From: Escherichia phage EcSzw-2
Direction: 5' to 3' (one strand)
DNA: 64,000 bases
Sequence record: MH791400.1
Made by a program: the position numbers and the translations under genes. The notes beneath the pieces were generated by a model, which worked only from the letters and a program-made list of their open reading frames with translations, was not told where the DNA came from and ran no database searches. This document shows positions 100 to 40,653 of this stretch, piece by piece (the first letter of the stretch is position 1; the number at the start of each line of letters is the position of its first letter).

Positions 100-240
100 T
101 TATAGGGGCTTTAAAGGGTATGCCAAGTTGACTAACAAGGATTTAACAAGGTCTTAACAATGATTTAACATACCCCTAACAAGGGTAACTATGCAGGAGT
201 TGTTAAGAATTTGTTAAGAAAATGTTAAGGGGGCTAGCAT
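100..240. repeat. array of TAACAAG / CTTAACA heptamers in direct then inverted orientation (candidate protein-binding array)
   Basis: taacaag at ~134,147,175 plus ttaacaa/ttaacat variants; inverted copies tgttaag x3 at ~200-235; far above chance for a 7-mer. Confidence 0.6.
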
Positions 241-719
241 TTACGTAACTTTTAAGCCACTTTTAAGCAACTTTATAGCCCCTATAACATACTTTTANNN
301 AGACAATAACAAGCCCTTTTTAGTAGTTCACAAGGGACTAACGAGATGATAAAGCTTGATACCTTATAAGATTCTTTTAAGGCCATAGAAAGCTCTATAA
401 ATGGCTTTTAAGAGTGGGTTAATATGATTGCTTAAGTTAGGTTGATAAGCTGTTATAGGGCTTTATAGAGCGTTTTAGAGGGTTGCCCTCCCCTTTGGGT
501 TATGGGCTTATATTTAAGTTGATTTGATAAGATGATATAGAGTAAGCTATAGAGTTATTATTTTTAAGGTCTGGTAAGATTCTCTAAGAGTCTGCATAGG
601 GATTGCATAGACGTAAAAAAGCCCCTATGAGATAGATTCTATGAAGGTAATTCATTACCTGAATNAGAAAGGGGCTGTTAAGGTATCTGGGGCTATTTTA
701 GCCCCGTTGCGGCGTCTCG

Positions 720-968
720 TTAGTTATGACCGTCCTTGTCATAGTAAAGAGAAATGATTTTATCGTTCCAATAGTGCCAATGATTACCATCTTTCACCGC
801 CTCTTGGATAGCTGCAATCCAAAAATCCGATTCAGGGTTATAATCCTTGACAATCTGGCTAACAAGGCTTTTCACCATATCAAAAGCACTATCTGTACTG
901 ATAATGTCAAATTTAACATCCAGTGAGTAAAAACCATATTCGTTAACAGTTGCGCGGATAGTTGCCAT
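720..968 (-). CDS. hypothetical early protein (82 aa)
   Basis: ORF directly preceded by conserved promoter/leader cassette ending ...CCTAAACTGGAGAaTCAAAG-ATG. Confidence 0.65.
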   Translation of the reverse strand: MATIRATVNEYGFYSLDVKFDIISTDSAFDMVKSLVSQIVKDYNPESDFWIAAIQEAVKDGNHWHYWNDKIISLYYDKDGHN

Positions 969-1055
969 CTTTGATTCTCCAGTTTAGGATTGATTTGGTA
1001 AAGCTCTTTATCTGGGGCTTATACTATCGAACTATAAACCCCTTGTAAAGCACTT
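969..1055 (-). promoter_or_regulatory. early promoter + conserved leader/RBS cassette, type A (TTTACA-N17-TAGTAT, GGAG RBS)
   Basis: On minus strand: TTTACA (~1044-1049), 17-bp spacer, TAGTAT (~1021-1026), then leader aagccccagataaagag...cctaaactggag; inverted repeat ggggtttata/tataagcccc brackets the -10. Confidence 0.6.
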
Positions 1056-1253
1056 TTAATACATTTTATCGAATAACTGGTTTATTGCAGCAACTGCATG
1101 ATTTTTAAAGTTTAAGTTGTTAGTGTTATCAGAAAACACTACTTCAGTGTTGTAAGTGATTTCTAGTGATACAAACGAACCATTTACATTTAAAGAATAG
1201 GATACACCTTTTAAGCACCACAAGGTAGACAGCTTTTGCATTAAATCTTTCAT
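1056..1253 (-). CDS. hypothetical early protein (65 aa)
   Basis: ORF preceded by type B promoter/leader cassette with GGAG RBS. Confidence 0.6.
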   Translation of the reverse strand: MKDLMQKLSTLWCLKGVSYSLNVNGSFVSLEITYNTEVVFSDNTNNLNFKNHAVAAINQLFDKMY

Positions 1254-1330
1254 CTTGAATCTCCAGTTTAGGAAGTAAGCTTGATTGCTTGATAGATACT
1301 ATAGGGCTTTTAGAAAGTGATTGCAAGCCC
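1254..1330 (-). promoter_or_regulatory. early promoter + leader cassette, type B (TTGCAA-N17-TATAGT)
   Basis: Minus strand: TTGCAA (~1321-1326), 17 bp, TATAGT (~1298-1303), leader ...cttcctaaactggagattcaag-ATG; promoter spacer can form hairpin agggctt/aagccct. Confidence 0.55.
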
Positions 1331-1454
1331 TTTTTAGTCTTATCTATAAAGAATCTTTTAAGTGATTCCTTTTAGATAAAACCCCCTCGAACAAATGTAC
1401 TATTGTCAAGGGGTATCGTCAAGTAATTTTTGAAAGTTTTTTGTAAGTTGTTGA

Positions 1455-1796
1455 TTAACTTATAAAGATTTTTTCAGGCTTGACGTAGTTCATTTTTTGG
1501 CCTTTAAGTAAATCACTCCAGATTAAAGCGGCAATGTGACCATAACCGGATTCACGTAGCGCTTTCATCGTGTTGACTTTTGTTTCAAATCGTGTTGCGT
1601 AGTATTCACTGTTAAGGGTTGTTTTGTTCCCTTCATTGTCTGTATGAATGATTTGCATCACATGAAACGGGCTAACATCCTCTCCGAGATTCCATTGCTC
1701 AAAGTATTTTAAACACTGCATAGGCGACATATTATCACTGACTCGTGTAGACCATGATGAATTTTCTTTATCGGTAATTACGGTTACATGTGCCAT
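1455..1796 (-). CDS. hypothetical early protein (113 aa)
   Basis: ORF with upstream conserved cassette and GGAG RBS. Confidence 0.65.
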   Translation of the reverse strand: MAHVTVITDKENSSWSTRVSDNMSPMQCLKYFEQWNLGEDVSPFHVMQIIHTDNEGNKTTLNSEYYATRFETKVNTMKALRESGYGHIAALIWSDLLKGQKMNYVKPEKIFIS

Positions 1797-1870
1797 CTTT
1801 GAATCTCCAGTTTAGGAAAGCTCTTTATCTGGGGCTTATGGTATCAAGCTTTTAAGCCCCTTGTANTTGT
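1797..1870 (-). promoter_or_regulatory. early promoter + leader cassette, type A variant (ambiguous base at 1866 in the -35 region)
   Basis: Conserved leader aagccccagataaagagctttcctaaactggagattcaa; -10-like TACCAT; hairpin-capable ggggcttat...ataagcccc. Confidence 0.5.
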
Positions 1871-2099
1871 AAATCTCTAAAAATTCATCTTCATTAACAT
1901 TTTCGTAGTATTCTGCGTTTTCGTCTTCACCTTGTAAGACATAGCAGCCCATTCTAGACGATTTCGGGTATTCTTGTCTAGCAATATTGCAAGCTTCTAC
2001 CGCGTTTTGTTTAGTTCCTTCAAAGGATTCTAAAACCCCATAATGGCAATTATTAGCCCCAGAGCATACAGCAAGCATGAGATAGATTGTAGTTAACAT
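1836..2099 (-). CDS. hypothetical protein with N-terminal hydrophobic signal-like segment (87 aa; 3' end reads through the downstream promoter cassette and the ambiguous base)
   Basis: ORF; N-terminus MLTTIYLMLAVCSGANNC is signal-peptide-like; no own cassette, probably co-transcribed with the upstream 185-aa gene. Confidence 0.45.
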   Translation of the reverse strand: MLTTIYLMLAVCSGANNCHYGVLESFEGTKQNAVEACNIARQEYPKSSRMGCYVLQGEDENAEYYENVNEDEFLEIYXYKGLKSLIP

Positions 2100-2162
2100 G
2101 ATTTAAGCCCCTTGCAAGCCCCTATGCGGGGCTTTTTAATGTTGTTAGTGTGATTGTATGGT

Positions 2163-2720
2163 TTACGCTAAAACGTCGTTTACAGTGCTTTCTGTTAAGC
2201 TTTCCTGCATTGCGTCTAGCATGTTGCAATAGATAATTGAACTATCATCAGTATTTTGAATAAAGCTTGCAACTTCTTCAAGTTTTTCATCAACATAGCC
2301 TAAATTTGGATTTTTTAAGTTAGGTACAAAAAACGGTGAATACATAGAGTTAAATTCTGTGATGTAAACCTTTTTAATCCAATCTTTATCAAAAGATTCT
2401 GTAAAGCTTGCGATATCACTCATATTTTCACAAGACCAATCATCTTGCAATTCATATTCTGGAATGTCAAGTTCTAAGATAACAATATTTTGGGTTTTCA
2501 TCTGAAAAGCTGCTGTGATTGTAGCACTATCAAGAGCATTGCGTAAACCTTCATTAGTAATTTCTTCAGCATTCATAGAATCAAGGTCATAGAATTTATT
2601 AACAGGGTAAACGTAAAAACAACCATCACTATCAGAGCAATTCCAAGCGCCTGATGGTTTATCACCGCCATTGATGAGGTTTACAAAGTTTTCTTGAGTA
2701 GTACCGTGAAAGCATTTCAT
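2163..2720 (-). CDS. hypothetical early protein (185 aa)
   Basis: ORF preceded by conserved leader/RBS (promoter part diverged or truncated; n at 2773). Confidence 0.65.
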   Translation of the reverse strand: MKCFHGTTQENFVNLINGGDKPSGAWNCSDSDGCFYVYPVNKFYDLDSMNAEEITNEGLRNALDSATITAAFQMKTQNIVILELDIPEYELQDDWSCENMSDIASFTESFDKDWIKKVYITEFNSMYSPFFVPNLKNPNLGYVDEKLEEVASFIQNTDDSSIIYCNMLDAMQESLTESTVNDVLA

Positions 2721-2775
2721 TTTGAATCTCCAGTTTAGGATTGATTTGGTAAATCTCTTTATCTGGGGCTATNAA
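2721..2775 (-). promoter_or_regulatory. conserved leader/RBS cassette (type A, truncated promoter part)
   Basis: ttgaatctccagtttaggattgatttggtaaatctctttatctggggctat matches the other cassettes. Confidence 0.5.
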
Positions 2776-2849
2776 ATTTGGATTCACTCCGTTCATCTTG
2801 GGTCACCATATCATGTGATAAAATATCTACCCTTCTTAACAGCCTACTT

Positions 2850-3010
2850 AATCTTACTCTCTATATATATATAGTTATATAGTACTATATAGTATCTTAG
2901 TCCCTTAACAGTGAGTCTCTATAGCCCTCTGTATAACCCTTCTATAAAGCCCTATAAGCATCCCTCTTCCAAACCTATACAATCACCTTAACCATCTCTT
3001 CATAGCCCCT
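2850..3010. repeat. phased (~10-11 bp) CTATA(G/A) / TATATAG short repeats in noncoding AT-rich DNA
   Basis: ctatatatatatagttatatagtactatatagtatc...ctctatagccctctgtataacccttctataaagccctataagc; helical-period spacing suggests intrinsic bending. Confidence 0.5.
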
Positions 3011-3349
3011 TAGAAGCCCCTATACCCATCTTAATCTCTATGTCAGAGATAGTACCCTCTATAGGGTGTTCACTAGGTTCTACTAATCCTCTNGTTGTTC
3101 TTAAGAATCAACCTCTTAGGCTTATCCTACAAGGTCTAACACGTTATTAACAAGGTATCTTATAAGCCTGTATTTACCTGTTTTATACAGAATACTATAT
3201 AGATATTTATGCAATTCTTAAAATTTTTATAAAATAGAACTGTCAAGTCATTTTTTAGGGTCTTGAGAGCAACTCAAAAATATCTGTTTAGGATGTATAT
3301 CTGCTTGGTAGCCCTTAACAGCCTTGTAACATACCCTTTGCAAAATTTT

Positions 3350-3600
3350 AAAATATCATTAACAAATTCTTAACAACTCTATCAATCTCTTAACATCTCT
3401 TCAAAGGTCTTAACAGATTCTTAACAGGACTAACAAGGGTGTAACAGTTATTTAACAAGTGCTACATAGTCTTTACAGAATCTTAACAGATGACTAACAA
3501 GAGCTAACAAGTTAATTTTAAAGGGTTATTTTGTTAAGATAATTAACAAGTTCCTAACAAGTGTTTAATCCTTTTAACAAGCTGTTAACATGGTCACTAT
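3350..3600. repeat. dense array of (C)TTAACA(A/G)(G) repeats, ~15 copies, ~11-22 bp spacing
   Basis: tcttaacaactc, tcttaacatctc, gtcttaacagattcttaacaggactaacaagggtgtaacag...tttaacaagtg...gactaacaagagctaacaag...ttaacaagttcctaacaagtg...tttaacaagctgttaacatgg. Confidence 0.7.
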
Positions 3601-3640
3601 CTCTTCTCTTCTCGTTCCCTTAACTTCTCAGTGAATCTCT

Positions 3641-3690
3641 AAACATCCTCTTAAAAGCTCTGTATAGCTCTGTATAGCCTCTTTTAAGCC
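3641..3690. repeat. ~50-bp direct repeat, copy 2 (matches window positions 1-50)
   Basis: aaacatcctcttaaaagctctgtatagctctgtatagcctcttttaagcc. Confidence 0.8.
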
Positions 3691-3935
3691 NTAGTTTTCT
3701 TTGAGAAAATTAGTTTAACTGCAACCGTGGGAAGTTCTTCAATACTTGTAAAAAGCGTTACCTTTTGAGTAACAACCTTGTAACCATTTTTTGCAGCGTA
3801 TGCCGTGAAACGATTAACCGTATAACTATAAGTTTTTGATGTGTTGTCTGACATATGGTACAAATAGGGCTTGCCTAAATTTTGAGATTGTGTTAACAGT
3901 CGGCAAGTATCAGGAACGTTTAAATAATTAAGCAT
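3684..3935 (-). CDS. hypothetical early protein (83 aa; 3' end overlaps repeat copy 2 and ambiguous base 3691)
   Basis: ORF preceded by type B promoter/leader cassette. Confidence 0.55.
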   Translation of the reverse strand: MLNYLNVPDTCRLLTQSQNLGKPYLYHMSDNTSKTYSYTVNRFTAYAAKNGYKVVTQKVTLFTSIEELPTVAVKLIFSKKTXA

Positions 3936-4020
3936 TTAGATTCTCCAGTTTAGGAAGTGGGATTGCTTGCCCGTCTGATAAGTAATTTAAGCTATTTAAA
4001 AACCAGTGTCAATAGATTTT
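3936..4020 (-). promoter_or_regulatory. early promoter + leader cassette, type B (TTGACA-N17-TAAATT)
   Basis: Minus strand TTGACA (~4007-4012), 17 bp, TAAATT (~3984-3989), leader acttatcagacgggcaagcaatcccacttcctaaactggagaatctaa-ATG. Confidence 0.55.
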
Positions 4021-4425
4021 TTAAAGTTCTGCGTAAATTGCATCACAGATATCACGAAAATCATAGCTTGTCAAGTTACGTTGTAACCATGTTGCGAAAA
4101 AATCAGCTATTGCAAAATTTGCATCATACTCAACAGATAACCACACTTTTACAGCAAATCGAAACATTTTCAAGTCAAGTTCTTTATTCATTACTTTTGA
4201 TTTGCCTAACATGTCAACCATTTCATATTGTGCGCCGTCAAGTGTAACACCTGATGCAACATTTGCAAGTGAATTTTTTACGCTTTCAACGTCTAAGATT
4301 GCACCTTGAATCTTTCCGATAATGTTATGCAGTGTTTCGTCTGGTGCTGCTGATGTAATTACGTTGATGCGATTAACGGTCAAACGTGCTTTCAGGATTG
4401 CAGTGTCACGAGTATTCATAGCCAT
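4021..4425 (-). CDS. hypothetical early protein (134 aa)
   Basis: ORF with type A cassette and GGAG RBS upstream. Confidence 0.65.
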   Translation of the reverse strand: MAMNTRDTAILKARLTVNRINVITSAAPDETLHNIIGKIQGAILDVESVKNSLANVASGVTLDGAQYEMVDMLGKSKVMNKELDLKMFRFAVKVWLSVEYDANFAIADFFATWLQRNLTSYDFRDICDAIYAEL

Positions 4426-4510
4426 TTTTAAATCTCCAGTTTAGGGGTTATCGATAAAATCTCTTTATCTGGGGCTATACTAGCAAACTTTATAACCCCA
4501 TGTAANAGAC
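4426..4510 (-). promoter_or_regulatory. early promoter + leader cassette, type A (TTACAT/TTTACA-N17-TAGTAT; n at 4506)
   Basis: Conserved cassette sequence; the -35 lies inside the 3' end of the upstream ORF. Confidence 0.55.
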
Positions 4511-4777
4511 TAAATACAACTTTTTCCCGTTAACAATGATGTAACTTACACCGCTATTGCTGTAAACATCTTGATAGATTCTGCGTAACTTGCCTGAATA
4601 GCGCACTTTCCAAGATGTAGGAATCTTTTTACCGTATCCGGTGGATGTTTTTTGTAAACCTGCTAATTGCCAATCTAAAATGTGTTGTTCTGCTGTTAAC
4701 TCTTCAAAGTTTAATACGCCGTCTACATAGTGCTTTAAAGTAACGTTTAAGGTGTGACCATTATTTGTAGTATACAT
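4490..4777 (-). CDS. hypothetical early protein (95 aa)
   Basis: ORF preceded by type B cassette. Confidence 0.6.
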   Translation of the reverse strand: MYTTNNGHTLNVTLKHYVDGVLNFEELTAEQHILDWQLAGLQKTSTGYGKKIPTSWKVRYSGKLRRIYQDVYSNSGVSYIIVNGKKLYLVXYMGL

Positions 4778-4870
4778 TTTGAATCTCCAGTTTAGGAAGT
4801 GGGCTTGCTTGCCCGTCTGATAAGTAATTTACTTGTTTCCGTTACCAGTTGCAAGCCCTTTTTAGAAATT
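4778..4870 (-). promoter_or_regulatory. early promoter + leader cassette, type B (TTGCAA-N17-TAAATT)
   Basis: ctaaaaagggcttgcaactggtaacggaaacaagtaaattacttatcagacgggcaagcaagcccacttcctaaactggag on the minus strand. Confidence 0.55.
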
Positions 4871-5193: not shown

Positions 5194-5483
5194 GATGATT
5201 TACCTTTATGAAATAGTTTACCAGTGTGACTAATCTCAAAAGAATCTATCATATCTTTTGTTGATTTAACAGAACTTTTATTTGCATTGTCATAGATATC
5301 TACCTGAAGCAATGGCTTTTTGTATTCTTTACAAAAGTTCCAAATACAGACAACAACTTCTTTACCATTGATTTTTCCGTGATACCATTCTGTTACTTCA
5401 TGAGTACGGCGCATAGATTCTACAAATTTGATATCTTGTAAAAGTTTGCTCAACTTGGAACGTACATTTGCAGCAATAAACAT
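5187..5483 (-). CDS. hypothetical early protein (98 aa)
   Basis: ORF with type A cassette upstream. Confidence 0.65.
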   Translation of the reverse strand: MFIAANVRSKLSKLLQDIKFVESMRRTHEVTEWYHGKINGKEVVVCIWNFCKEYKKPLLQVDIYDNANKSSVKSTKDMIDSFEISHTGKLFHKGKSSC

Positions 5484-5573
5484 TTTAGAATCTCCAGTTT
5501 AGGATTGATTTGGTAAATCTCTTTATCTGGGGCTATNCTTATCAACCTGATAACCCCATGTAAAGCAATTTAT
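5484..5573 (-). promoter_or_regulatory. early promoter + leader cassette, type A (n at 5537)
   Basis: TTTACA-N17-TAAGnA plus conserved leader and GGAG RBS. Confidence 0.5.
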
Positions 5574-36468: not shown

Positions 36469-37272
36469 TTAGTGAATCTGCGTAGAATCAAGCTTTTCTT
36501 TATCAGACAGAGCCTGAATAGTTGCTACAAACTCATCACCGAAGTGGATAGCAATCTTATCTTGAAGAACTGCTGCACCAGTTTGCATAATCACTTCACG
36601 AAGTGCTTCACCACTTACGTTACCAGCAATCTGCTCTACAAACTCAATAGGTGCATCAATCAAACCTGCAACTTCAAACAGAGCGTGAATGCTCATAACA
36701 GTGATGATTGAAGGAACCAGAGCAGTCAGTTTGACCTGAATCTCATCAAGGCCACGTTCAGCTTCGTTGTCAACAACCTCTTGGAGTTGCTCTTTAGTCA
36801 GCTTCACCATTTCCTGTGAACGTTCAAAGATATCTGCAAAGCCCCAATCCAGTTTTTCATAACGTGGAAGTTTCTCTTGAATACGCTTCTCAAGTACAGC
36901 CATCACACTAGCAATGGAGTTGATAATCAGGTTGAACGTATCATCTTCAGTGAAGTCAAGCAGTGATTCTTTCTCTTCTTCAGAGAGAACCTTGTAGTCA
37001 CCAGTTTGCATCTTATCAAAGATGTAGCCTGTAAAGGCATCTACACCAACAGCTACTGAAGCCAGAGCCAGTTGACGGTTATTCAGAAGCAGTTCAACCT
37101 GTGAGCGAAATGCTGTCTCATCAGAGATTTCTGCATTAGCCTGATAGGATTCAGGAGTTGCTTGTGAACTGAAGGTATTACTACGCATAACAATAGCAAG
37201 GCTTTCAACAGTGTTCAGCATAAAGTTGCTATCAATACCTTTAGCTGCCAGCATTTCATTTACAGTAGTCAT
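36469..37272 (-). CDS. hypothetical protein (267 aa)
   Basis: ORF. Confidence 0.55.
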   Translation of the reverse strand: MTTVNEMLAAKGIDSNFMLNTVESLAIVMRSNTFSSQATPESYQANAEISDETAFRSQVELLLNNRQLALASVAVGVDAFTGYIFDKMQTGDYKVLSEEEKESLLDFTEDDTFNLIINSIASVMAVLEKRIQEKLPRYEKLDWGFADIFERSQEMVKLTKEQLQEVVDNEAERGLDEIQVKLTALVPSIITVMSIHALFEVAGLIDAPIEFVEQIAGNVSGEALREVIMQTGAAVLQDKIAIHFGDEFVATIQALSDKEKLDSTQIH

Positions 37273-37273
37273 A

Positions 37274-37696
37274 TTAATTCTCTCTCATTTTGTTAAGTGT
37301 TTGTCGTGATAACTTTAAGCTTTCTGTAGAGGAAAAGTCAAGAACTTTTTCAGACCTTGGGAAGTAATGTCTATCCCATGAACTTTCTACATCGCTAATC
37401 AGTGTTGCTAGGTTATCTAAGTCTGTTCCGTTTTGCAACTTCTTTTTTAAAGAATCTATCAAGAAGAGTGTATCTTTAGCTTTACGCCTCTCAGCCGATA
37501 TCTCCTTCATATGCTCAAAGACTGAACATTTCATTCTTTCGTCGTAACCTTCGGAGAGTTCAATCTCATGTTGAACATCAACCATTCGACGATGATGGTA
37601 AGCGTATTCTTTTTGAGCAGCAATGTCAAGTTCTTCCAACTTTTTTAAAGCTCTCATGAAGTCAGCTATGTCTGGGTGAACAAACATTCTCTGCAT
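37274..37696 (-). CDS. hypothetical protein (140 aa), first gene of the minus-strand block
   Basis: ORF, start abuts downstream gene. Confidence 0.55.
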   Translation of the reverse strand: MQRMFVHPDIADFMRALKKLEELDIAAQKEYAYHHRRMVDVQHEIELSEGYDERMKCSVFEHMKEISAERRKAKDTLFLIDSLKKKLQNGTDLDNLATLISDVESSWDRHYFPRSEKVLDFSSTESLKLSRQTLNKMREN

Positions 37697-37953
37697 AATG
37701 CCCTCTTTTAAGTACCTATTAAACTTAATCTGTTTTCTTTACGTATTCTATACGTATAACTTTAAAGCTTCTTAAAAGCTATTAAAAATCTTTTAAGGGT
37801 TTTAAAGAAACTGTATAGTTAATCTGTAAAGGGAGTCTTTTAAGTTAAAACCCACTTCGCAAAGATTAACACCTTGTCAAGTGAATTGTCAACTTGCTTT
37901 TTGAAACTTTTTGCAGTAATGTATTGAGTCAATGATTTTGAGAGGGAGTAAAA
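37697..37953. promoter_or_regulatory. divergent intergenic control region (CTTTTAAG motifs, TTGTCAA direct repeat)
   Basis: Strand switch between the minus block and the DNA polymerase gene; ttgtcaagtgaattgtcaacttg; GGAG RBS before polymerase ATG. Confidence 0.5.
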
Positions 37954-40653
37954 ATGGAAAACGTAGATTTTGAAAACTTGCACTTGGTAGGTGATACCGA
38001 AACTGATGGGTTACTCCTTGAGTTCACAAAAGCACACGTAATGGCATTTGCAGATTACAAAGATGACAGTGACGAACCTGCTGTGTGGGTCTTCACCGAT
38101 GAACCTATTCTTGGTCACAAATGCACTAAGTATATTAAAGGTGGTCTTCGTGAAGGTGTAGAGTTTGCTCTTAAGGCAAAGCGTCTCTGCATTCATAACG
38201 GTCTTGGCTATGACTGGTGGGTGTTCAATCACATTGCACCGGACTTATGGAACTTTGACAATCCAAAGTGTAAACCTTGGGGAGACTTCTTTCAGGATTC
38301 TCTTATCCAGTCTCGTGTTCAGTGGATGGATAGACCTACACCGAAAGGTTATAAAGGTGCTCATGGTTTGGCTGCGTGGGGTGCTCGTGTTGGTGTTCGT
38401 AAACCAGAGATTGAAGAATGGGGTGTTTGGAATGCTGATATTCTGAACCGTGTTGTTGAGGATATTCGAATCAACGCCAAAACTAAACGTGCTCTTGATA
38501 ACGAATACCTGAAGTTGAAGAAGTGTGGTGTAGATACTTACGAAACCTACATGCGAGCTAAAGAAACATCTTTCTGGATGAGTCAGCAAGCTATCAACGG
38601 TTGGAAAGCTGATATTGAACTTATGCAGTTCCATGTCAAAGAACTTGACAGAATGACTGATGAGTTAGCTGCTGAAGTTGAGCCTCATCTGCCACCGACT
38701 ATCAAGACGAAAGGTAAAGTCACTGGTGAAGAGTTTGCAAAAGCTTGGAACGAGTATGTTGAGACATTTGGTAAAGCAGATGGTCTGAAGCGCATCACTA
38801 AGTATCCAAAAACTAAGTTCCGTCAGCAGGTTCGTAATGGTGAGATGCAGACTTACGCTATCAAACCTTTTGGTAAACCAACTACCAAGATTTTCAACAT
38901 TGAGAAGCGTAACTGCTACACTCCAACTAACACGGTTACTGGAGAAGAGTACAAAGAAGGCTTCGTGGCAATGAAAGATGCTCGTGCAGTTTGTAACAAG
39001 TTGAATGCTGCGATTGATAAGAAGTGCAAAGACTGGAAACCAGTTAAGACCGTGAAGACTGTGAAGTACTACAATAATCACGTAGTAAATCACTTTGAAC
39101 TTGAGTCAAGTCGTTACACAGGTTTGATTGATGCACCTTATACACCAATTGAGTTCGAAGTTTCACGCATGACTCAGGTTGCGGTTGTGAAGGATTATCT
39201 GAAAACTCTTGGCTGGATTCCTGATGACTGGAACTACAAGAAAGATTCTGATGGTCGTCCGGTGAAGGTTTGTCGCTTCAAAGATAACAAGAAGATGATT
39301 CGTAAACATCCGAAATGGCAAGAGATGGTAGACCGTTGCGGATTGAATTACGTTGAGCATGAAGGTGTACAGTACATCGAACACAACTGGTCTGTGAAGA
39401 AGTACACAGATTTGCTTGAACCTTGCTTGATTCGTACTTCACCGAAACTGACTGAATCTTCTTACGATACGATTGAAGGTGAACTTGGACAGAAGATTGC
39501 GAAGTACTATACTTTGATGCACCGACGCAGAACTATCGAGAACTCAAAGGATGATGAAAAGGGTTGGTTAAACCAGATTCGTCCAGATGGTCGTTTGAGT
39601 GCTGGTGCAATGGTGTTTGGTACTTCAACTGGACGTATGACACAATACGGAATTGTGAACGTACCTTCTGGGGCTGCTGTTTACGGTGAACCAATGAGGG
39701 CAGTCTGGATTTGTGAAGAAGGAGCCAACGTAGTCTCCGTTGATATGAACTCTGCACAGCTTGTTCTACTGTGTAACTTTATGGGTGATAAAGAGTTCAC
39801 AAAAGCGGTAACTCAGGGTAAAGAAGAGATTGAGTTTATCCGTCAGGAAGATGGCAGATACTACTGCAAACACTTTGACGAATACCTGAATCCAGAAGTT
39901 GATAAGTATCTGCGTTATGACTCTGAAAACGACTTGTACGTAGTTTACTCAGGTACTGATGCGCATACACTGAACAGTATCTACTTCAGCTTGAACGAAG
40001 AACAAGATATCCTGACTTGTCGTATGACTCAGGATGAGAATCTTCTTCACGAAATCAGTAAAGGCCGTAAGAAAGCTAAGAACGGTATCTATGCGTTACT
40101 GTTCGGTGCTGGCGATGAGAAGTTTGCTAAGACGATTAAAGCTGCGACTACTCAGGAAGGTGCATTGACTAAACAGACTTACTTTGTTCGCTTGCCGAAG
40201 ATTAAGAAACTGTTAGATGACTTGGAAGCTGACTTTAAAGCGACTAAGAAAGCACTTGAAGAGGTGTTTGGTAAGACTGCTGCAATTGCTAAAGGTGGTT
40301 TTGTCAAGGTTGCTGGAGCATGGTTGTGGTGTAAGTCTCCACACAAACTGTTGAACTACTTGCTGATGGGTTCAGAAGCACAAGTTCAGAATGAAGCAAT
40401 CAACCTTGCATGTCGTCGTATGATTGATGAAGGTTTGATGAAGTTGAATGGTCGTAAGCCAGCTATCGGTGCTCGTTTACTTTGTGCATATCACGATGAA
40501 ACAAGTTGGGAATGTCCAGAGAGCATGACAGCAGAAGTTAAGGCTGTAACTGACTGGTACTACGGACAAGCTTCTAAGAACTTAGGGCTTCGTAAAGAAA
40601 CTCTGGTAACAGGGACTGGTAAAGTTGGTAAGTCTTGGTTGGAAGTTCACTAA
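37954..40653 (+). CDS. DNA polymerase, family A, with 3'-5' exonuclease domain
   Basis: 899 aa; Exo I VGDTETDGLL; motif A VVSVDMNSAQL; motif B RKKAKNGIYALLFGAG; motif C AYHDETSWE. Confidence 0.9.
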   Translation: MENVDFENLHLVGDTETDGLLLEFTKAHVMAFADYKDDSDEPAVWVFTDEPILGHKCTKYIKGGLREGVEFALKAKRLCIHNGLGYDWWVFNHIAPDLWNFDNPKCKPWGDFFQDSLIQSRVQWMDRPTPKGYKGAHGLAAWGARVGVRKPEIEEWGVWNADILNRVVEDIRINAKTKRALDNEYLKLKKCGVDTYETYMRAKETSFWMSQQAINGWKADIELMQFHVKELDRMTDELAAEVEPHLPPTIKTKGKVTGEEFAKAWNEYVETFGKADGLKRITKYPKTKFRQQVRNGEMQTYAIKPFGKPTTKIFNIEKRNCYTPTNTVTGEEYKEGFVAMKDARAVCNKLNAAIDKKCKDWKPVKTVKTVKYYNNHVVNHFELESSRYTGLIDAPYTPIEFEVSRMTQVAVVKDYLKTLGWIPDDWNYKKDSDGRPVKVCRFKDNKKMIRKHPKWQEMVDRCGLNYVEHEGVQYIEHNWSVKKYTDLLEPCLIRTSPKLTESSYDTIEGELGQKIAKYYTLMHRRRTIENSKDDEKGWLNQIRPDGRLSAGAMVFGTSTGRMTQYGIVNVPSGAAVYGEPMRAVWICEEGANVVSVDMNSAQLVLLCNFMGDKEFTKAVTQGKEEIEFIRQEDGRYYCKHFDEYLNPEVDKYLRYDSENDLYVVYSGTDAHTLNSIYFSLNEEQDILTCRMTQDENLLHEISKGRKKAKNGIYALLFGAGDEKFAKTIKAATTQEGALTKQTYFVRLPKIKKLLDDLEADFKATKKALEEVFGKTAAIAKGGFVKVAGAWLWCKSPHKLLNYLLMGSEAQVQNEAINLACRRMIDEGLMKLNGRKPAIGARLLCAYHDETSWECPESMTAEVKAVTDWYYGQASKNLGLRKETLVTGTGKVGKSWLEVH

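Follow-up and report, generated by a model that had tools for sequence, protein, structure and literature searches.

Genome terminus and predicted direct terminal repeat

The window analysed here, a 64,000-nucleotide stretch of Escherichia phage EcSzw-2 (MH791400.1; positions within it are prefixed w), belongs to a Suspvirus (Ounavirinae, Felix O1-like) and shares 99.5% identity with Escherichia phage EcSzw_1. It carries two arrays of TTAACA repeats in noncoding DNA, which the preliminary description had placed in two separate stretches. Their separation by ~3 kb is an artefact of the contig order of the window, because w1-49 duplicates w3642-3690, single Ns stand at w2773 and w3691, and the relatives are contiguous across this locus. 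The first N is a contig junction at which EcSzw_1 reads NNNNNNN and continues with w3692 onward. The second N is a further junction, and the 49 bp preceding it, a repeat of w1-49, resemble a k-mer-type overlap. In 204 relatives, w50-720 directly follows w2774-3690, resulting in a single 1.6-kb noncoding region within which the two arrays lie ~190 bp apart, with the noncoding DNA uninterrupted between them. This region contains no supported ORFs and no Rfam match, and is mostly devoid of annotation in the records of the relatives.

In native order, the region begins with unique noncoding DNA at the end of the right arm of the genome (w2774-3306), which is C-rich on this strand and features CTATAAAGCCC-type units together with AT-rich blocks at w2860-2895 and w3150-3300 (24-25% GC). 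It is followed by the direct terminal repeat (DTR), the left part of which (w3307-3690) is natively continued by the right part (w50-234). A second stretch of unique noncoding DNA (w235-719), G-rich and carrying CTTTTAAGCC and GGGCTTTATAG units, leads to the first small gene beyond the DTR (w720-968, minus strand), a homologue of Felix O1 ORF23.

Both arrays sit in this ~570-bp DTR, which is predicted by homology. The 608-bp DTR of phage UAB_Phi87 was determined experimentally with Bal31 digestion and run-off sequencing (Bardina et al. 2016, PMC4837284). Over its full length, this repeat aligns with native positions 532-1094 (w3305 to w226) at 75% identity (459/611 columns, 69 gapped), and both ends are nearly identical. 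In their GenBank records, vB_EcoM_D4 (581 bp; positions 1-581 equal the last 581 bp of the record) and NBEco005 (651 bp) show exact terminal duplications that correspond to native 534-1102, and at the corresponding position Erwinia phage M7 possesses a terminal duplication, likewise exact, of 444 bp. In other Felixounaviruses, DTRs of 581 and 613 bp have been reported on the basis of PhageTerm. Furthermore, the EcSzw_1 record begins at the left border (w3308) and holds an ambiguous base (N) exactly at the equivalent of w234, the right border, while the mistaenkt record begins at ~w233. The window itself contains a single DTR copy, as the other genome end lies beyond it; its 49-bp duplication is an assembly overlap. 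The borders of this phage are homology-based and vary with the relative used, the left between w3305 and w3308 and the right between w226 and w237, and published and record borders disagree by 2-11 nt.

The left border is embedded in the block GATGTATATCTGCTTGGTAGCCCTTAAC (w3292-3320), which contains TAGCCCTTAACA, is invariant in 10/10 aligned relatives and can still be made out in Erwinia phage M7 and Pectobacterium phage Wc4-1. Its counterpart on the right, TTGTTAAGAAtTTGTTAAGAAAATGTTAAGGGGGCTAGCaTTTACGT (w200-249), is nearly invariant and includes TGTTAAGGGGGCTA, an inverted copy of the left-border TAGCCC(CC)TTAACA. Reiterated short motifs are found at or near the presumed terminase cleavage positions. 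Just inside the left border, a promoter-like element, (G/T)TAACA-N17-TAAAAT (w3326-3354, plus strand), is recognised by consensus match only. The block that contains it, CCTTTGCAAAATTTTAAAATATC, is the one portion of the DTR that BLAST still aligns to Erwinia and Pectobacterium phages. The centre of the DTR (w1-121, of which w1-49 equals w3642-3690) is occupied by a second family of 10-11-bp units, consisting of CTCTTAAAAG, two copies of CTCTGTATAG, CCTCTTTTAAG and CCCCTTGTAAG, followed by the inverted-sense units GGGCTTTACAG, GGGCTTTATAG and GGGGCTTTAAAG.

Phased arrays of TAACA cores

The conserved core of the repeats is the pentamer TAACA, set within cTTAACA(A/G)g (consensus cTTAACAAg). The 569-bp element contains 27 such cores, compared to 2.8 +/- 1.6 (maximum 9) in 2000 simulated sequences built from the dinucleotides of the element itself and an expectation of 1.8 under genome dinucleotides. 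The densest 300-bp interval holds 19 cores; beyond the first 3.7 kb, such intervals average 0.99 cores and never exceed 5. The exact motif TTAACAR has 70 copies in the whole 64-kb window (37.9 +/- 6.2 in shuffles), with 23 of these copies in the first 3.9 kb. No other cluster of TAACA or TTAACA was detected across the 64-kb window, where the outside copies are solitary and dispersed inside genes. The clustering of TTAACA is real and specific to this locus.

The left array (w3316-3590) comprises 19 TAACA cores, 17 direct and two inverted, which are invariant or nearly so in ten relatives. Its initial 19 units (w3316-3516, degenerate ones counted) cover 200 bp, corresponding to 10.5 bp per unit. 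The right array (w133-227) consists of eight cores, five direct (w133-181) followed by three inverted (TGTTAAG, w201-227), at a strict period of 11 bp, and its final inverted core adjoins the right DTR border. Taken together, the arrays reach to within 8 nt of the left DTR border and 6 nt of the right one. Among the intervals between nearest-neighbour cores, 13 of 26 measure exactly 11 bp, the rest being mostly 9-12, ~20 or 31-33 bp. Here, Tandem Repeats Finder picks up no more than short, imperfect arrays with 10-11-bp units.

These results bear out the preliminary description of clustered TTAACA(A/G) heptamers in both orientations within noncoding DNA, with 27 cores in ~570 bp against 2-3 expected, as well as the helical-repeat-like spacing it had proposed. 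Its chance expectation of below one copy was too low, as a degenerate 7-mer searched on both strands of 3.7 kb is expected about twice. It had further named an even, genome-wide over-representation of the heptamer as the sign of a compositional artefact; the window-wide count instead reveals one sole cluster, in the first 3.7 kb, and the sites beyond it are single and scattered within genes, so that the over-representation is not an even one.

When the DTRs of ten relatives are compared, the core columns are 96% identical and the spacer columns 77.5% (Mann-Whitney p = 1.5e-13). The indels that separate these relatives, six of 1 bp, four of 11 bp and one each of 21, 22 and 49 bp, fall mostly into 11- or 22-bp units where they are larger. 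The number of TAACA cores per DTR amounts to 25 in D4, 26 in NBEco005 and 20 in M7. In M7 and Pectobacterium phage Wc4-1, the alignable stretch has shrunk to only ~85 bp, and CTTAACA arrays are kept, with direct copies on the left and inverted copies on the right. More generally, the TTAACA motif is retained in genera whose spacers can no longer be aligned (Kolesnikvirus, Pectobacterium phages). These patterns show that the cores and their phasing are under selection. The deepest conservation is seen in the border block together with CCTTTGCAAAATTTTAAAATATC and not in the arrays, which may therefore play an accessory part.

Proposed packaging recognition and alternative roles

A multimeric array for a DNA-binding protein, as suggested in the preliminary description, fits the conservation of the cores, their phasing, the unit-sized indels and the retention across genera; that the element is a genome terminus had not been recognised. 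Among the roles it listed, packaging alone gains positive support, as the DTR that encloses the arrays is the concatemer junction, where the terminase has to act. The proposed functions as origin, partition site or transcription-factor decoy found no such support. By analogy with the T7 CCTAAAG arrays or P1 pac, we postulate that the phased sites at the concatemer junction are bound by a packaging-recognition (small-terminase-like) protein, and consider the chances of this reading to be about even. That a protein binds the TTAACA sites, which protein this is, and that packaging or end formation is the purpose are what we infer from the arrangement.

In replicating concatemers, the DTR sequence would form the junction between genome units. 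The terminase would recognise it, cleave at the two borders and bring about its duplication, providing each packaged genome end with one copy. Recognition, two-border cutting and duplication constitute the T7/T3 paradigm of short-DTR phages. The 27 cTTAACAAg sites, phased by one helical turn, would serve as binding sites of a phage-encoded recognition protein acting as the small terminase. A candidate is a conserved DUF5681 protein with an AT-hook-like GRPKGSRNK arm, whose gene lies outside the window. The recognition protein would either bind cooperatively along one face of ~200 bp or have this DNA wrapped round an oligomer, and the resulting nucleoprotein complex would position the large terminase at both borders, each of which carries TAGCCC(CC)TTAACA, in opposite orientations.

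No small terminase is annotated in Felix O1-like phages. The DUF5681 protein is conserved throughout the Ounavirinae, and its basic arm FKKGQSGNPxGRPKGSRNK is invariant. In two of three unrelated phage contigs, the DUF5681 gene directly precedes the large terminase gene and overlaps it, which is the position of a small-terminase gene; in the Ounavirinae, the two genes are not adjacent. Structure prediction yielded a helical hairpin (pLDDT 72), which is uninformative and has no significant match in the PDB. A more specific version, in which a DUF5681 oligomer wraps or coats ~19 helical turns (200 bp) of TTAACA plus the mirrored array, with the GRPKGSRNK arm bound to the TTAA minor groove, is speculative, and we regard it as rather unlikely. 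If it were true, DUF5681 would represent a new small-terminase family, and a nucleosome-sized motif-array pac site would set both DTR cleavage borders. In a bolder variant, the array may double as an organiser of entry, replication or recombination of the terminal repeat.

The array could also be bound by a host factor instead of a phage protein. Near-consensus IHF sites are 7-fold enriched in the DTR, at 21 per kb compared to 3.1 per kb elsewhere, and phages infecting different enterobacteria have the motif in common, as expected if a conserved host protein were its binder. The enrichment is, however, a by-product of TAACAA-N4-TTA, and all IHF-like matches miss one and the same consensus position. 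More broadly, the TTAACA units and the TTTACA and TATAG units next to them might bind RNA polymerase, a phage early-promoter regulator or an IHF-type nucleoid protein, and the array would then function as sink, silencer or architectural element of the first-entering DNA. Such a role is suggested by the 5/6 match of TTAACA to the -35 hexamer TTGACA, by related words in the early-gene promoters of this phage (CTTTACA...GGGGCTTAAAAG) and by the conservation of the promoter-like element at the left border across three genera. Against this stands the lack of any excess of correctly spaced -35/-10 pairs (25 in w1-6000 versus 21.4 +/- 4.4 in shuffles), on which grounds a sigma-70 promoter cluster or -35 decoy was rejected. 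Neither would transcription explain why the arrays stop at the DTR borders with inverted border copies, and we judge this group of explanations improbable.

We consider a replication origin no more probable than that. Under this explanation, the phased repeats would be iteron-like initiator sites and the AT-rich neighbour the unwinding element, the overlap with the DTR being coincidental or a dual use. Many reiterated sites do lie beside AT-rich DNA (w3151-3300, 24-25% GC; w2860-2895, TATATATATATAGTTATATAG...), and the sign of the GC skew flips inside the element. Yet this local flip arises because the repeat families are inverted in orientation, and the cumulative GC-skew minimum of the window is found near 38 kb, at the divergent junction of primase-helicase and DNA polymerase. 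The cores measure 7-9 bp at 10.5-11 bp spacing, as opposed to iterons of 17-22 bp; no DnaA box occurs in the element with up to one mismatch allowed, and no recognisable initiator domain is present in the neighbouring genes, the flanking genes being without known domains. From the set of features that define an iteron-type origin, the AT-rich neighbourhood alone is present, while unit length, DnaA boxes and an initiator gene fail.

Still less credible, in our view very unlikely, is that the element has no sequence-specific function and represents a decaying 11-bp tandem repeat generated by replication slippage, perhaps useful only as a bendable spacer. The indels of whole 11-bp units and the Tandem Repeats Finder result agree with such an origin, and a scan of viral contigs returned many unrelated 11-bp tandem repeats containing TAACA. 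Decay should, however, affect cores and spacers equally, which is not what the relatives display. The core also persists in Kolesnikvirus and Pectobacterium phages despite their unalignable spacers, and the arrangement of orientations, with direct cores on the left and inverted ones at the right border, is conserved as well. Finally, a centromere-like partition site resembling parC of plasmid R1 shares the formal feature of ~11-bp repeat clusters in both orientations, but is negligibly probable for a virulent phage with a linear, concatemer-forming genome, and this type II candidate was discarded when neither ParM/ParR-like nor ParA/ParB-like genes were found among the flanking genes or large ORFs.

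Comparison with known systems

The packaging reading can be compared with several well-described arrangements. The left end of T7, the sequence of which we checked, contains 11 CTAAAG cores, or 15 including degenerate [C/A]TAA[A/C]G, at 13-bp spacing, located in and just beyond the 160-bp terminal repeat. These CCTAAAG short-repeat arrays are reportedly the SRL and SRR of Dunn and Studier, and are not known to have a settled function. According to Chung and Hinkle 1990 (as cited in PMC13236587), the processing of T7 concatemers and their packaging depend in cis on the junction region. Both phages possess a short, exact direct terminal repeat and a 6-7-bp motif that recurs more than 10 times, about one helical turn apart, in or next to it. 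The motif itself differs (CCTAAAG in T7, TTAACA here), as does the spacing (13 bp versus 10.5-11 bp), and the T7 copies adopt one orientation and lie mostly just outside the repeat, whereas those described here occur in both orientations inside it. T7 is also a podovirus that encodes an RNA polymerase, and pausing of this enzyme at the junction belongs to the mechanism, and no sequence homology was found between the T7 junction and this DTR. The relation is one of analogy and not of membership in a T7-type array.

The pac site of P1 is built from the hexamer TGATCA/G, with four and three copies on either side of the cleavage region. As in the present element, clusters of a short motif flank the terminase cleavage position; in P1, they are bound by the recognition subunit. 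P1 differs in its headful packaging, single cut and Dam methylation of GATC, in contrast to the fixed-end DTR, the two cleavage borders and the complete absence of GATC in this phage. Lambda cosB consists of the R1-R3 sites and an IHF site, and the pacL and pacR boxes of SPP1 are bound by its small terminase. These systems share phased short recognition elements next to the cut site, forming a bent or wrapped nucleoprotein complex there, and IHF-like sites are present here as well. They are distinguished by three to seven sites, other motifs, cos or headful ends and HTH binders, compared to 27 sites, a DTR and a candidate binder in our case. The parC site of plasmid R1 comprises two clusters of 11-bp repeats. 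Reiterated ~11-bp sites (parC) or clustered repeats (iteron origins), cooperatively bound in those systems, are mirrored in this element, which is set apart by the absence of partner genes and DnaA boxes, a unit length unlike that of iterons and its position at the genome terminus.

For UAB_Phi87, the published account prints the DTR sequence (Fig. S1) without comment on repeats (PMC4837284). The terminal repeat is already known, and its repeat architecture is previously undescribed. The UAB_Phi87 repeat is homologous in sequence to the one described here and bears the same motif arrays. UAB_Phi87 is a Felixounavirus and this phage a Suspvirus, and the difference in length between their DTRs (608 bp versus ~570 bp) results from indels of 11- and 22-bp units.

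Contig order and location of the predicted terminal repeat

Megablast with positions 1-4200 matches 257 phage records, all of them Felix O1-like (Ounavirinae), with Escherichia phage EcSzw_1 of the genus Suspvirus as the best match (99.5% identity). The gene set is confirmed by the large open reading frames, which include rIIA, NAMPT, ribonucleotide reductases, primase-helicase, DNA polymerase, tail fibre, tape measure and sheath; the terminase gene lies outside the window. In EcSzw_1, mistaenkt, skuden and PC79-13, the sequence runs from 2774-3690 into 50-2772 and then from 3692 onward. The window opens with an identical copy of 3642-3690 (positions 1-49), followed by 50-2772, a single N (2773), 2774-3690, a second single N (3691) and the remaining sequence; the junction between 2772 and 3692 is given as NNNNNNN in EcSzw_1. 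The 917-bp contig 2774-3690 follows the 2.7-kb contig in front of which it belongs, and the two overlap by 49 bp. Judged by comparison with the relatives, the window order is an artefact of wrongly ordered contigs, and the source is a draft-quality assembly. Further Ns are found at 298-300, 665, 1866, 3093, 4506, 5537 and 6977, most of them matching Ns in the EcSzw_1 record, and the N at 3093 stands for 50 bp found in EcSzw_1.

Rebuilt in the relatives' order, a 1588-bp query (2774-3690 plus 50-720, hereafter native coordinates) has one colinear place in 204 records at 78-90% identity, counting matches that cover at least 80% of the query. The region is therefore a single noncoding stretch of 1.6 kb, situated between convergent gene blocks that are the counterparts of Felix O1 ORF24 and ORF23. 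The preliminary description assigned the repeats to two separate noncoding stretches; their noncoding nature stands, their separation does not, and the two "separate" repeat regions of the record are a caution for annotators.

Short terminal repeats of Felix O1 were inferred by Whichard et al. (PMC3185647). The direct terminal repeat (DTR) itself is already known, as Bardina et al. (PMC4837284) used Bal31 digestion and run-off sequencing to map a 608-bp DTR in the related Felixounavirus UAB_Phi87. The sequence printed in their paper comprises 590 nt as recovered from the supplementary PDF and aligns from first to last base with native 532-1094, corresponding to 3305-3690 plus 50-226. As the GenBank record JN225449.1 of UAB_Phi87 begins elsewhere than at the DTR, the borders were taken from the paper's supplementary figure. 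Exact terminal duplications in the records of vB_EcoM_D4 (581 bp) and NBEco005 (651 bp) map to native 534-1102, that is, 3307 to 234. The EcSzw_1 record starts at the equivalent of 3308 and carries an ambiguous base at the equivalent of 234, and the mistaenkt record starts at ~233. For two other Felixounaviruses, published PhageTerm analyses give DTRs of 581 bp and 613 bp.

The flanks of the DTR have features of their own. GC skew is -0.66 at 2900-3050 versus +0.4 to +0.5 at 400-600, on opposite sides of the DTR, and one unit occurs in opposite orientation on either side (CTATAAAGCCC and GGGCTTTATAG), giving the whole 1.6-kb region a loose dyad symmetry. Positions 453-469 and 2941-2957 form a perfect 17-nt inverted repeat. 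The adjoining 82-aa gene (720-968, minus strand) is a homologue of Felix O1 ORF23 and has no known domain in Pfam and PHROGs; the abstract of the Felix O1 genome paper names Gp23 among the proteins that proteomics showed to be structural. Every small minus-strand early gene is preceded by a conserved cassette of ~60-90 nt (966-1056, 1791-1860, 2714-2772, 3929-3990, 4420-4513, 4771-4831 and 5478-5571, minus-strand sense), in which a promoter-like TTTACA-N17-TAxxxT leads to CCCCAGATAAAGAG and then to TCCTAAACTGGAGAxTCxAAATG, containing the Shine-Dalgarno sequence and start codon. These cassettes are the counterpart of repeats of 57 bp described in Felix O1, and their words (CTTTACA, GGGGCTTAAAAG) are similar to those repeat units of the terminal region that are not of the TTAACA type.

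Phasing and conservation of the TAACA arrays

TTAACAR occurs 70 times in the window versus 37.9 ± 6.2 expected, with 23 copies within the first 3.9 kb. Within cTTAACA(A/G)g, TAACA is the conserved core, and its copies form a left array (19 cores, 3316-3590) and a right array (8 cores, 133-227). The 569-bp element thus holds 27 cores, compared with 2.8 ± 1.6 (maximum 9) expected from its own dinucleotide composition. Its densest 300-bp interval contains 19 cores; the rest of the window has a mean of 0.99 and a maximum of 5, with isolated sites lying mostly inside genes. Counted over all 64 kb, the clustering reported in the preliminary description is confined to this locus. Because the mapped and recorded DTRs of relatives align here, both arrays are placed by alignment within the terminal repeat, at its opposite ends.

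The cores are helically phased, 13 of the 26 nearest-neighbour intervals being exactly 11 bp. In the left array, 19 consecutive units (15 with TAACA, four degenerate) stay in register over 200 bp, or 10.5 bp per unit, and the right array has a strict period of 11 bp. The ~190 bp between the arrays are occupied by a second family of units, 10-11 bp long, e.g. CTCTGTATAG and GGGCTTTAYAG.

When ten DTRs from Suspvirus, Felixounavirus and Mooglevirus are aligned with the window as reference, identity is 96% in the TAACA core columns versus 77.5% in the array spacer columns (p = 1.5e-13). Single-base indels number six and 11-bp indels four; indels of 21, 22 and 49 bp occur once each. The left border block is invariant in all ten and the right one nearly so, the left holding TAGCCCTTAACA and the right its inverted copy TGTTAAGGGGGCTA. 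In Erwinia phage M7 (Kolesnikvirus), just ~85 bp are still alignable; even so, its record shows an exact terminal duplication of 444 bp at the homologous site. This duplication carries 20 TAACA cores, those on the left in direct and most of those on the right in inverted orientation, and the pattern is the same in Pectobacterium phage Wc4-1. A core kept across genera, diverged spacers and a phase held by whole-unit indels have the look of a protein-binding array, consistent with the proposal of the preliminary description, and not that of a decaying tandem repeat.

About 150-450 bp to the right of the M7 DTR (fetched loci L018 and L020), we observed another phased repeat, (C/T)TTAGAAG, in ~14 copies, at the position where the window phage carries CTTTTAAGCC and TTATAGGG units. 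It points to a second recognition array next to the DTR, one that evolves faster. When IMG/VR was scanned for four TAACA cores spaced 11 bp apart, the dense arrays all came from Ounavirinae-like contigs, 76-82% identical to the DTR, and the remaining hits were simple tandem repeats of unrelated viruses, so that no wider array family is established. Four IMG/VR contigs (L049, L084, L073 and L128) carry dense phased related words, e.g. GTAACAG and CTTGTTACAACC at 11 bp, and give no BLAST match to the window DTR.

Alternative roles of the arrays

An origin of replication at the arrays, as the preliminary description had considered, would agree with the AT-rich flank, its sole point in favour; however, the element has no DnaA boxes, no initiator gene lies nearby and the cumulative GC-skew minimum falls near 38 kb, all of which argue against this role. 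The minimum itself (~37272-37954) coincides with the junction from which the primase-helicase block on the minus strand and the DNA polymerase block on the plus strand diverge, and may reflect transcription direction only or mark a replication origin. For a promoter, terminator or decoy cluster, the left border offers a conserved (G/T)TAACA-N17-TAAAAT element, but hexamer pairs of the -35/-10 type are not enriched in a consensus scan, leaving the suggested transcription-factor decoy unsupported. Near-matches to IHF sites are enriched 7-fold, as an array for this host factor would have it, yet this enrichment is a by-product of TAACAA-N4-TTA. A partition site, also proposed earlier, is disfavoured since par genes were not found among the flanking genes or the large open reading frames.

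Folding of 143-170 with 201-228 into a right-border hairpin, on the model of the T7 right end, yields only -13.8 kcal/mol (z = -2.5) and is a weak by-product of motif orientation. For a structured RNA, Rfam gave no match at E ≤ 1. With GATC absent, Dam/GATC control of the P1 pac kind is ruled out. Over the whole window (1-64000), GATC has 0 sites versus 200 ± 13 expected in shuffles; it is likewise absent from all 21 Ounavirinae loci fetched, Erwinia and Pectobacterium phages included, and CGCG, CCGG, GCGC, GGCC and CTAG are strongly depleted too. This suggests a subfamily-wide avoidance of Dam/MboI-type sites.

Candidate recognition protein and proposed packaging role at the concatemer junction

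No small terminase is annotated in Felix O1-like phages. A candidate outside the window is bas63_0129 of Bas63 (123 aa; MZ501086.1, 79867-80238; 3868-4239 of fetched locus L021), which matches Pfam DUF5681. The protein is conserved through Ounavirinae, Wc4-1 included, with an invariant basic arm, FKKGQSGNPxGRPKGSRNK, which we take to resemble an AT-hook and also the GRPxK arms known from small terminases. Of three unrelated contigs, two (metagenomic phage L146 and L149/L150) have the DUF5681 gene directly upstream of the large terminase gene and overlapping it; no recognised terminase adjoins it in the third. This gene context is what suggests that DUF5681 is an unrecognised small-terminase family. 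The protein has no sequence match in PDB and none in NCBIfam, and its AlphaFold model, a disordered basic arm with a helical hairpin (pLDDT 72), is uninformative, with no Foldseek hit in PDB below E = 2. We infer a link between this protein and the arrays. As other binders, we considered the DTR-flanking genes, all without known function in Pfam and PHROGs, and a 66-aa gene upstream of the Bas63 large terminase gene, whose product is acidic and also has no assigned function; both were rejected.

Phages with short DTRs package their DNA from concatemers carrying one repeat copy per junction, and in the T7/T3 paradigm the junction is recognised by terminase and ends are generated at both repeat borders. 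We postulate that the phased sites recruit the recognition subunit, while the mirrored border words would position the nuclease. In the open-access literature that we searched, neither the motif arrays and their phasing nor the mirrored borders or the subfamily-wide conservation are described.

Salmonella typing and biocontrol cocktails make wide use of Felix O1-like phages, and one of them, Bas63, is a BASEL model phage. The conserved, helically phased 27-site array in a mapped terminal repeat provides a concrete cis element to mutate and the DUF5681 protein a candidate trans factor to test. Together, they open a route to studying end recognition and end duplication in a short-DTR myovirus, and may also be useful for packageable vectors and for engineering Felix O1-like phages.

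As a packaging array, the element would be a further case of the repeat-rich terminase recognition regions at phage concatemer junctions. T7 carries 11 CTAAAG cores (15 with degenerate copies) in or just beyond its 160-bp repeat, as checked in its sequence. Since their motif, spacing (13 bp), orientation and placement all differ from those of the window phage, the T7 arrays serve as a precedent by analogy only.
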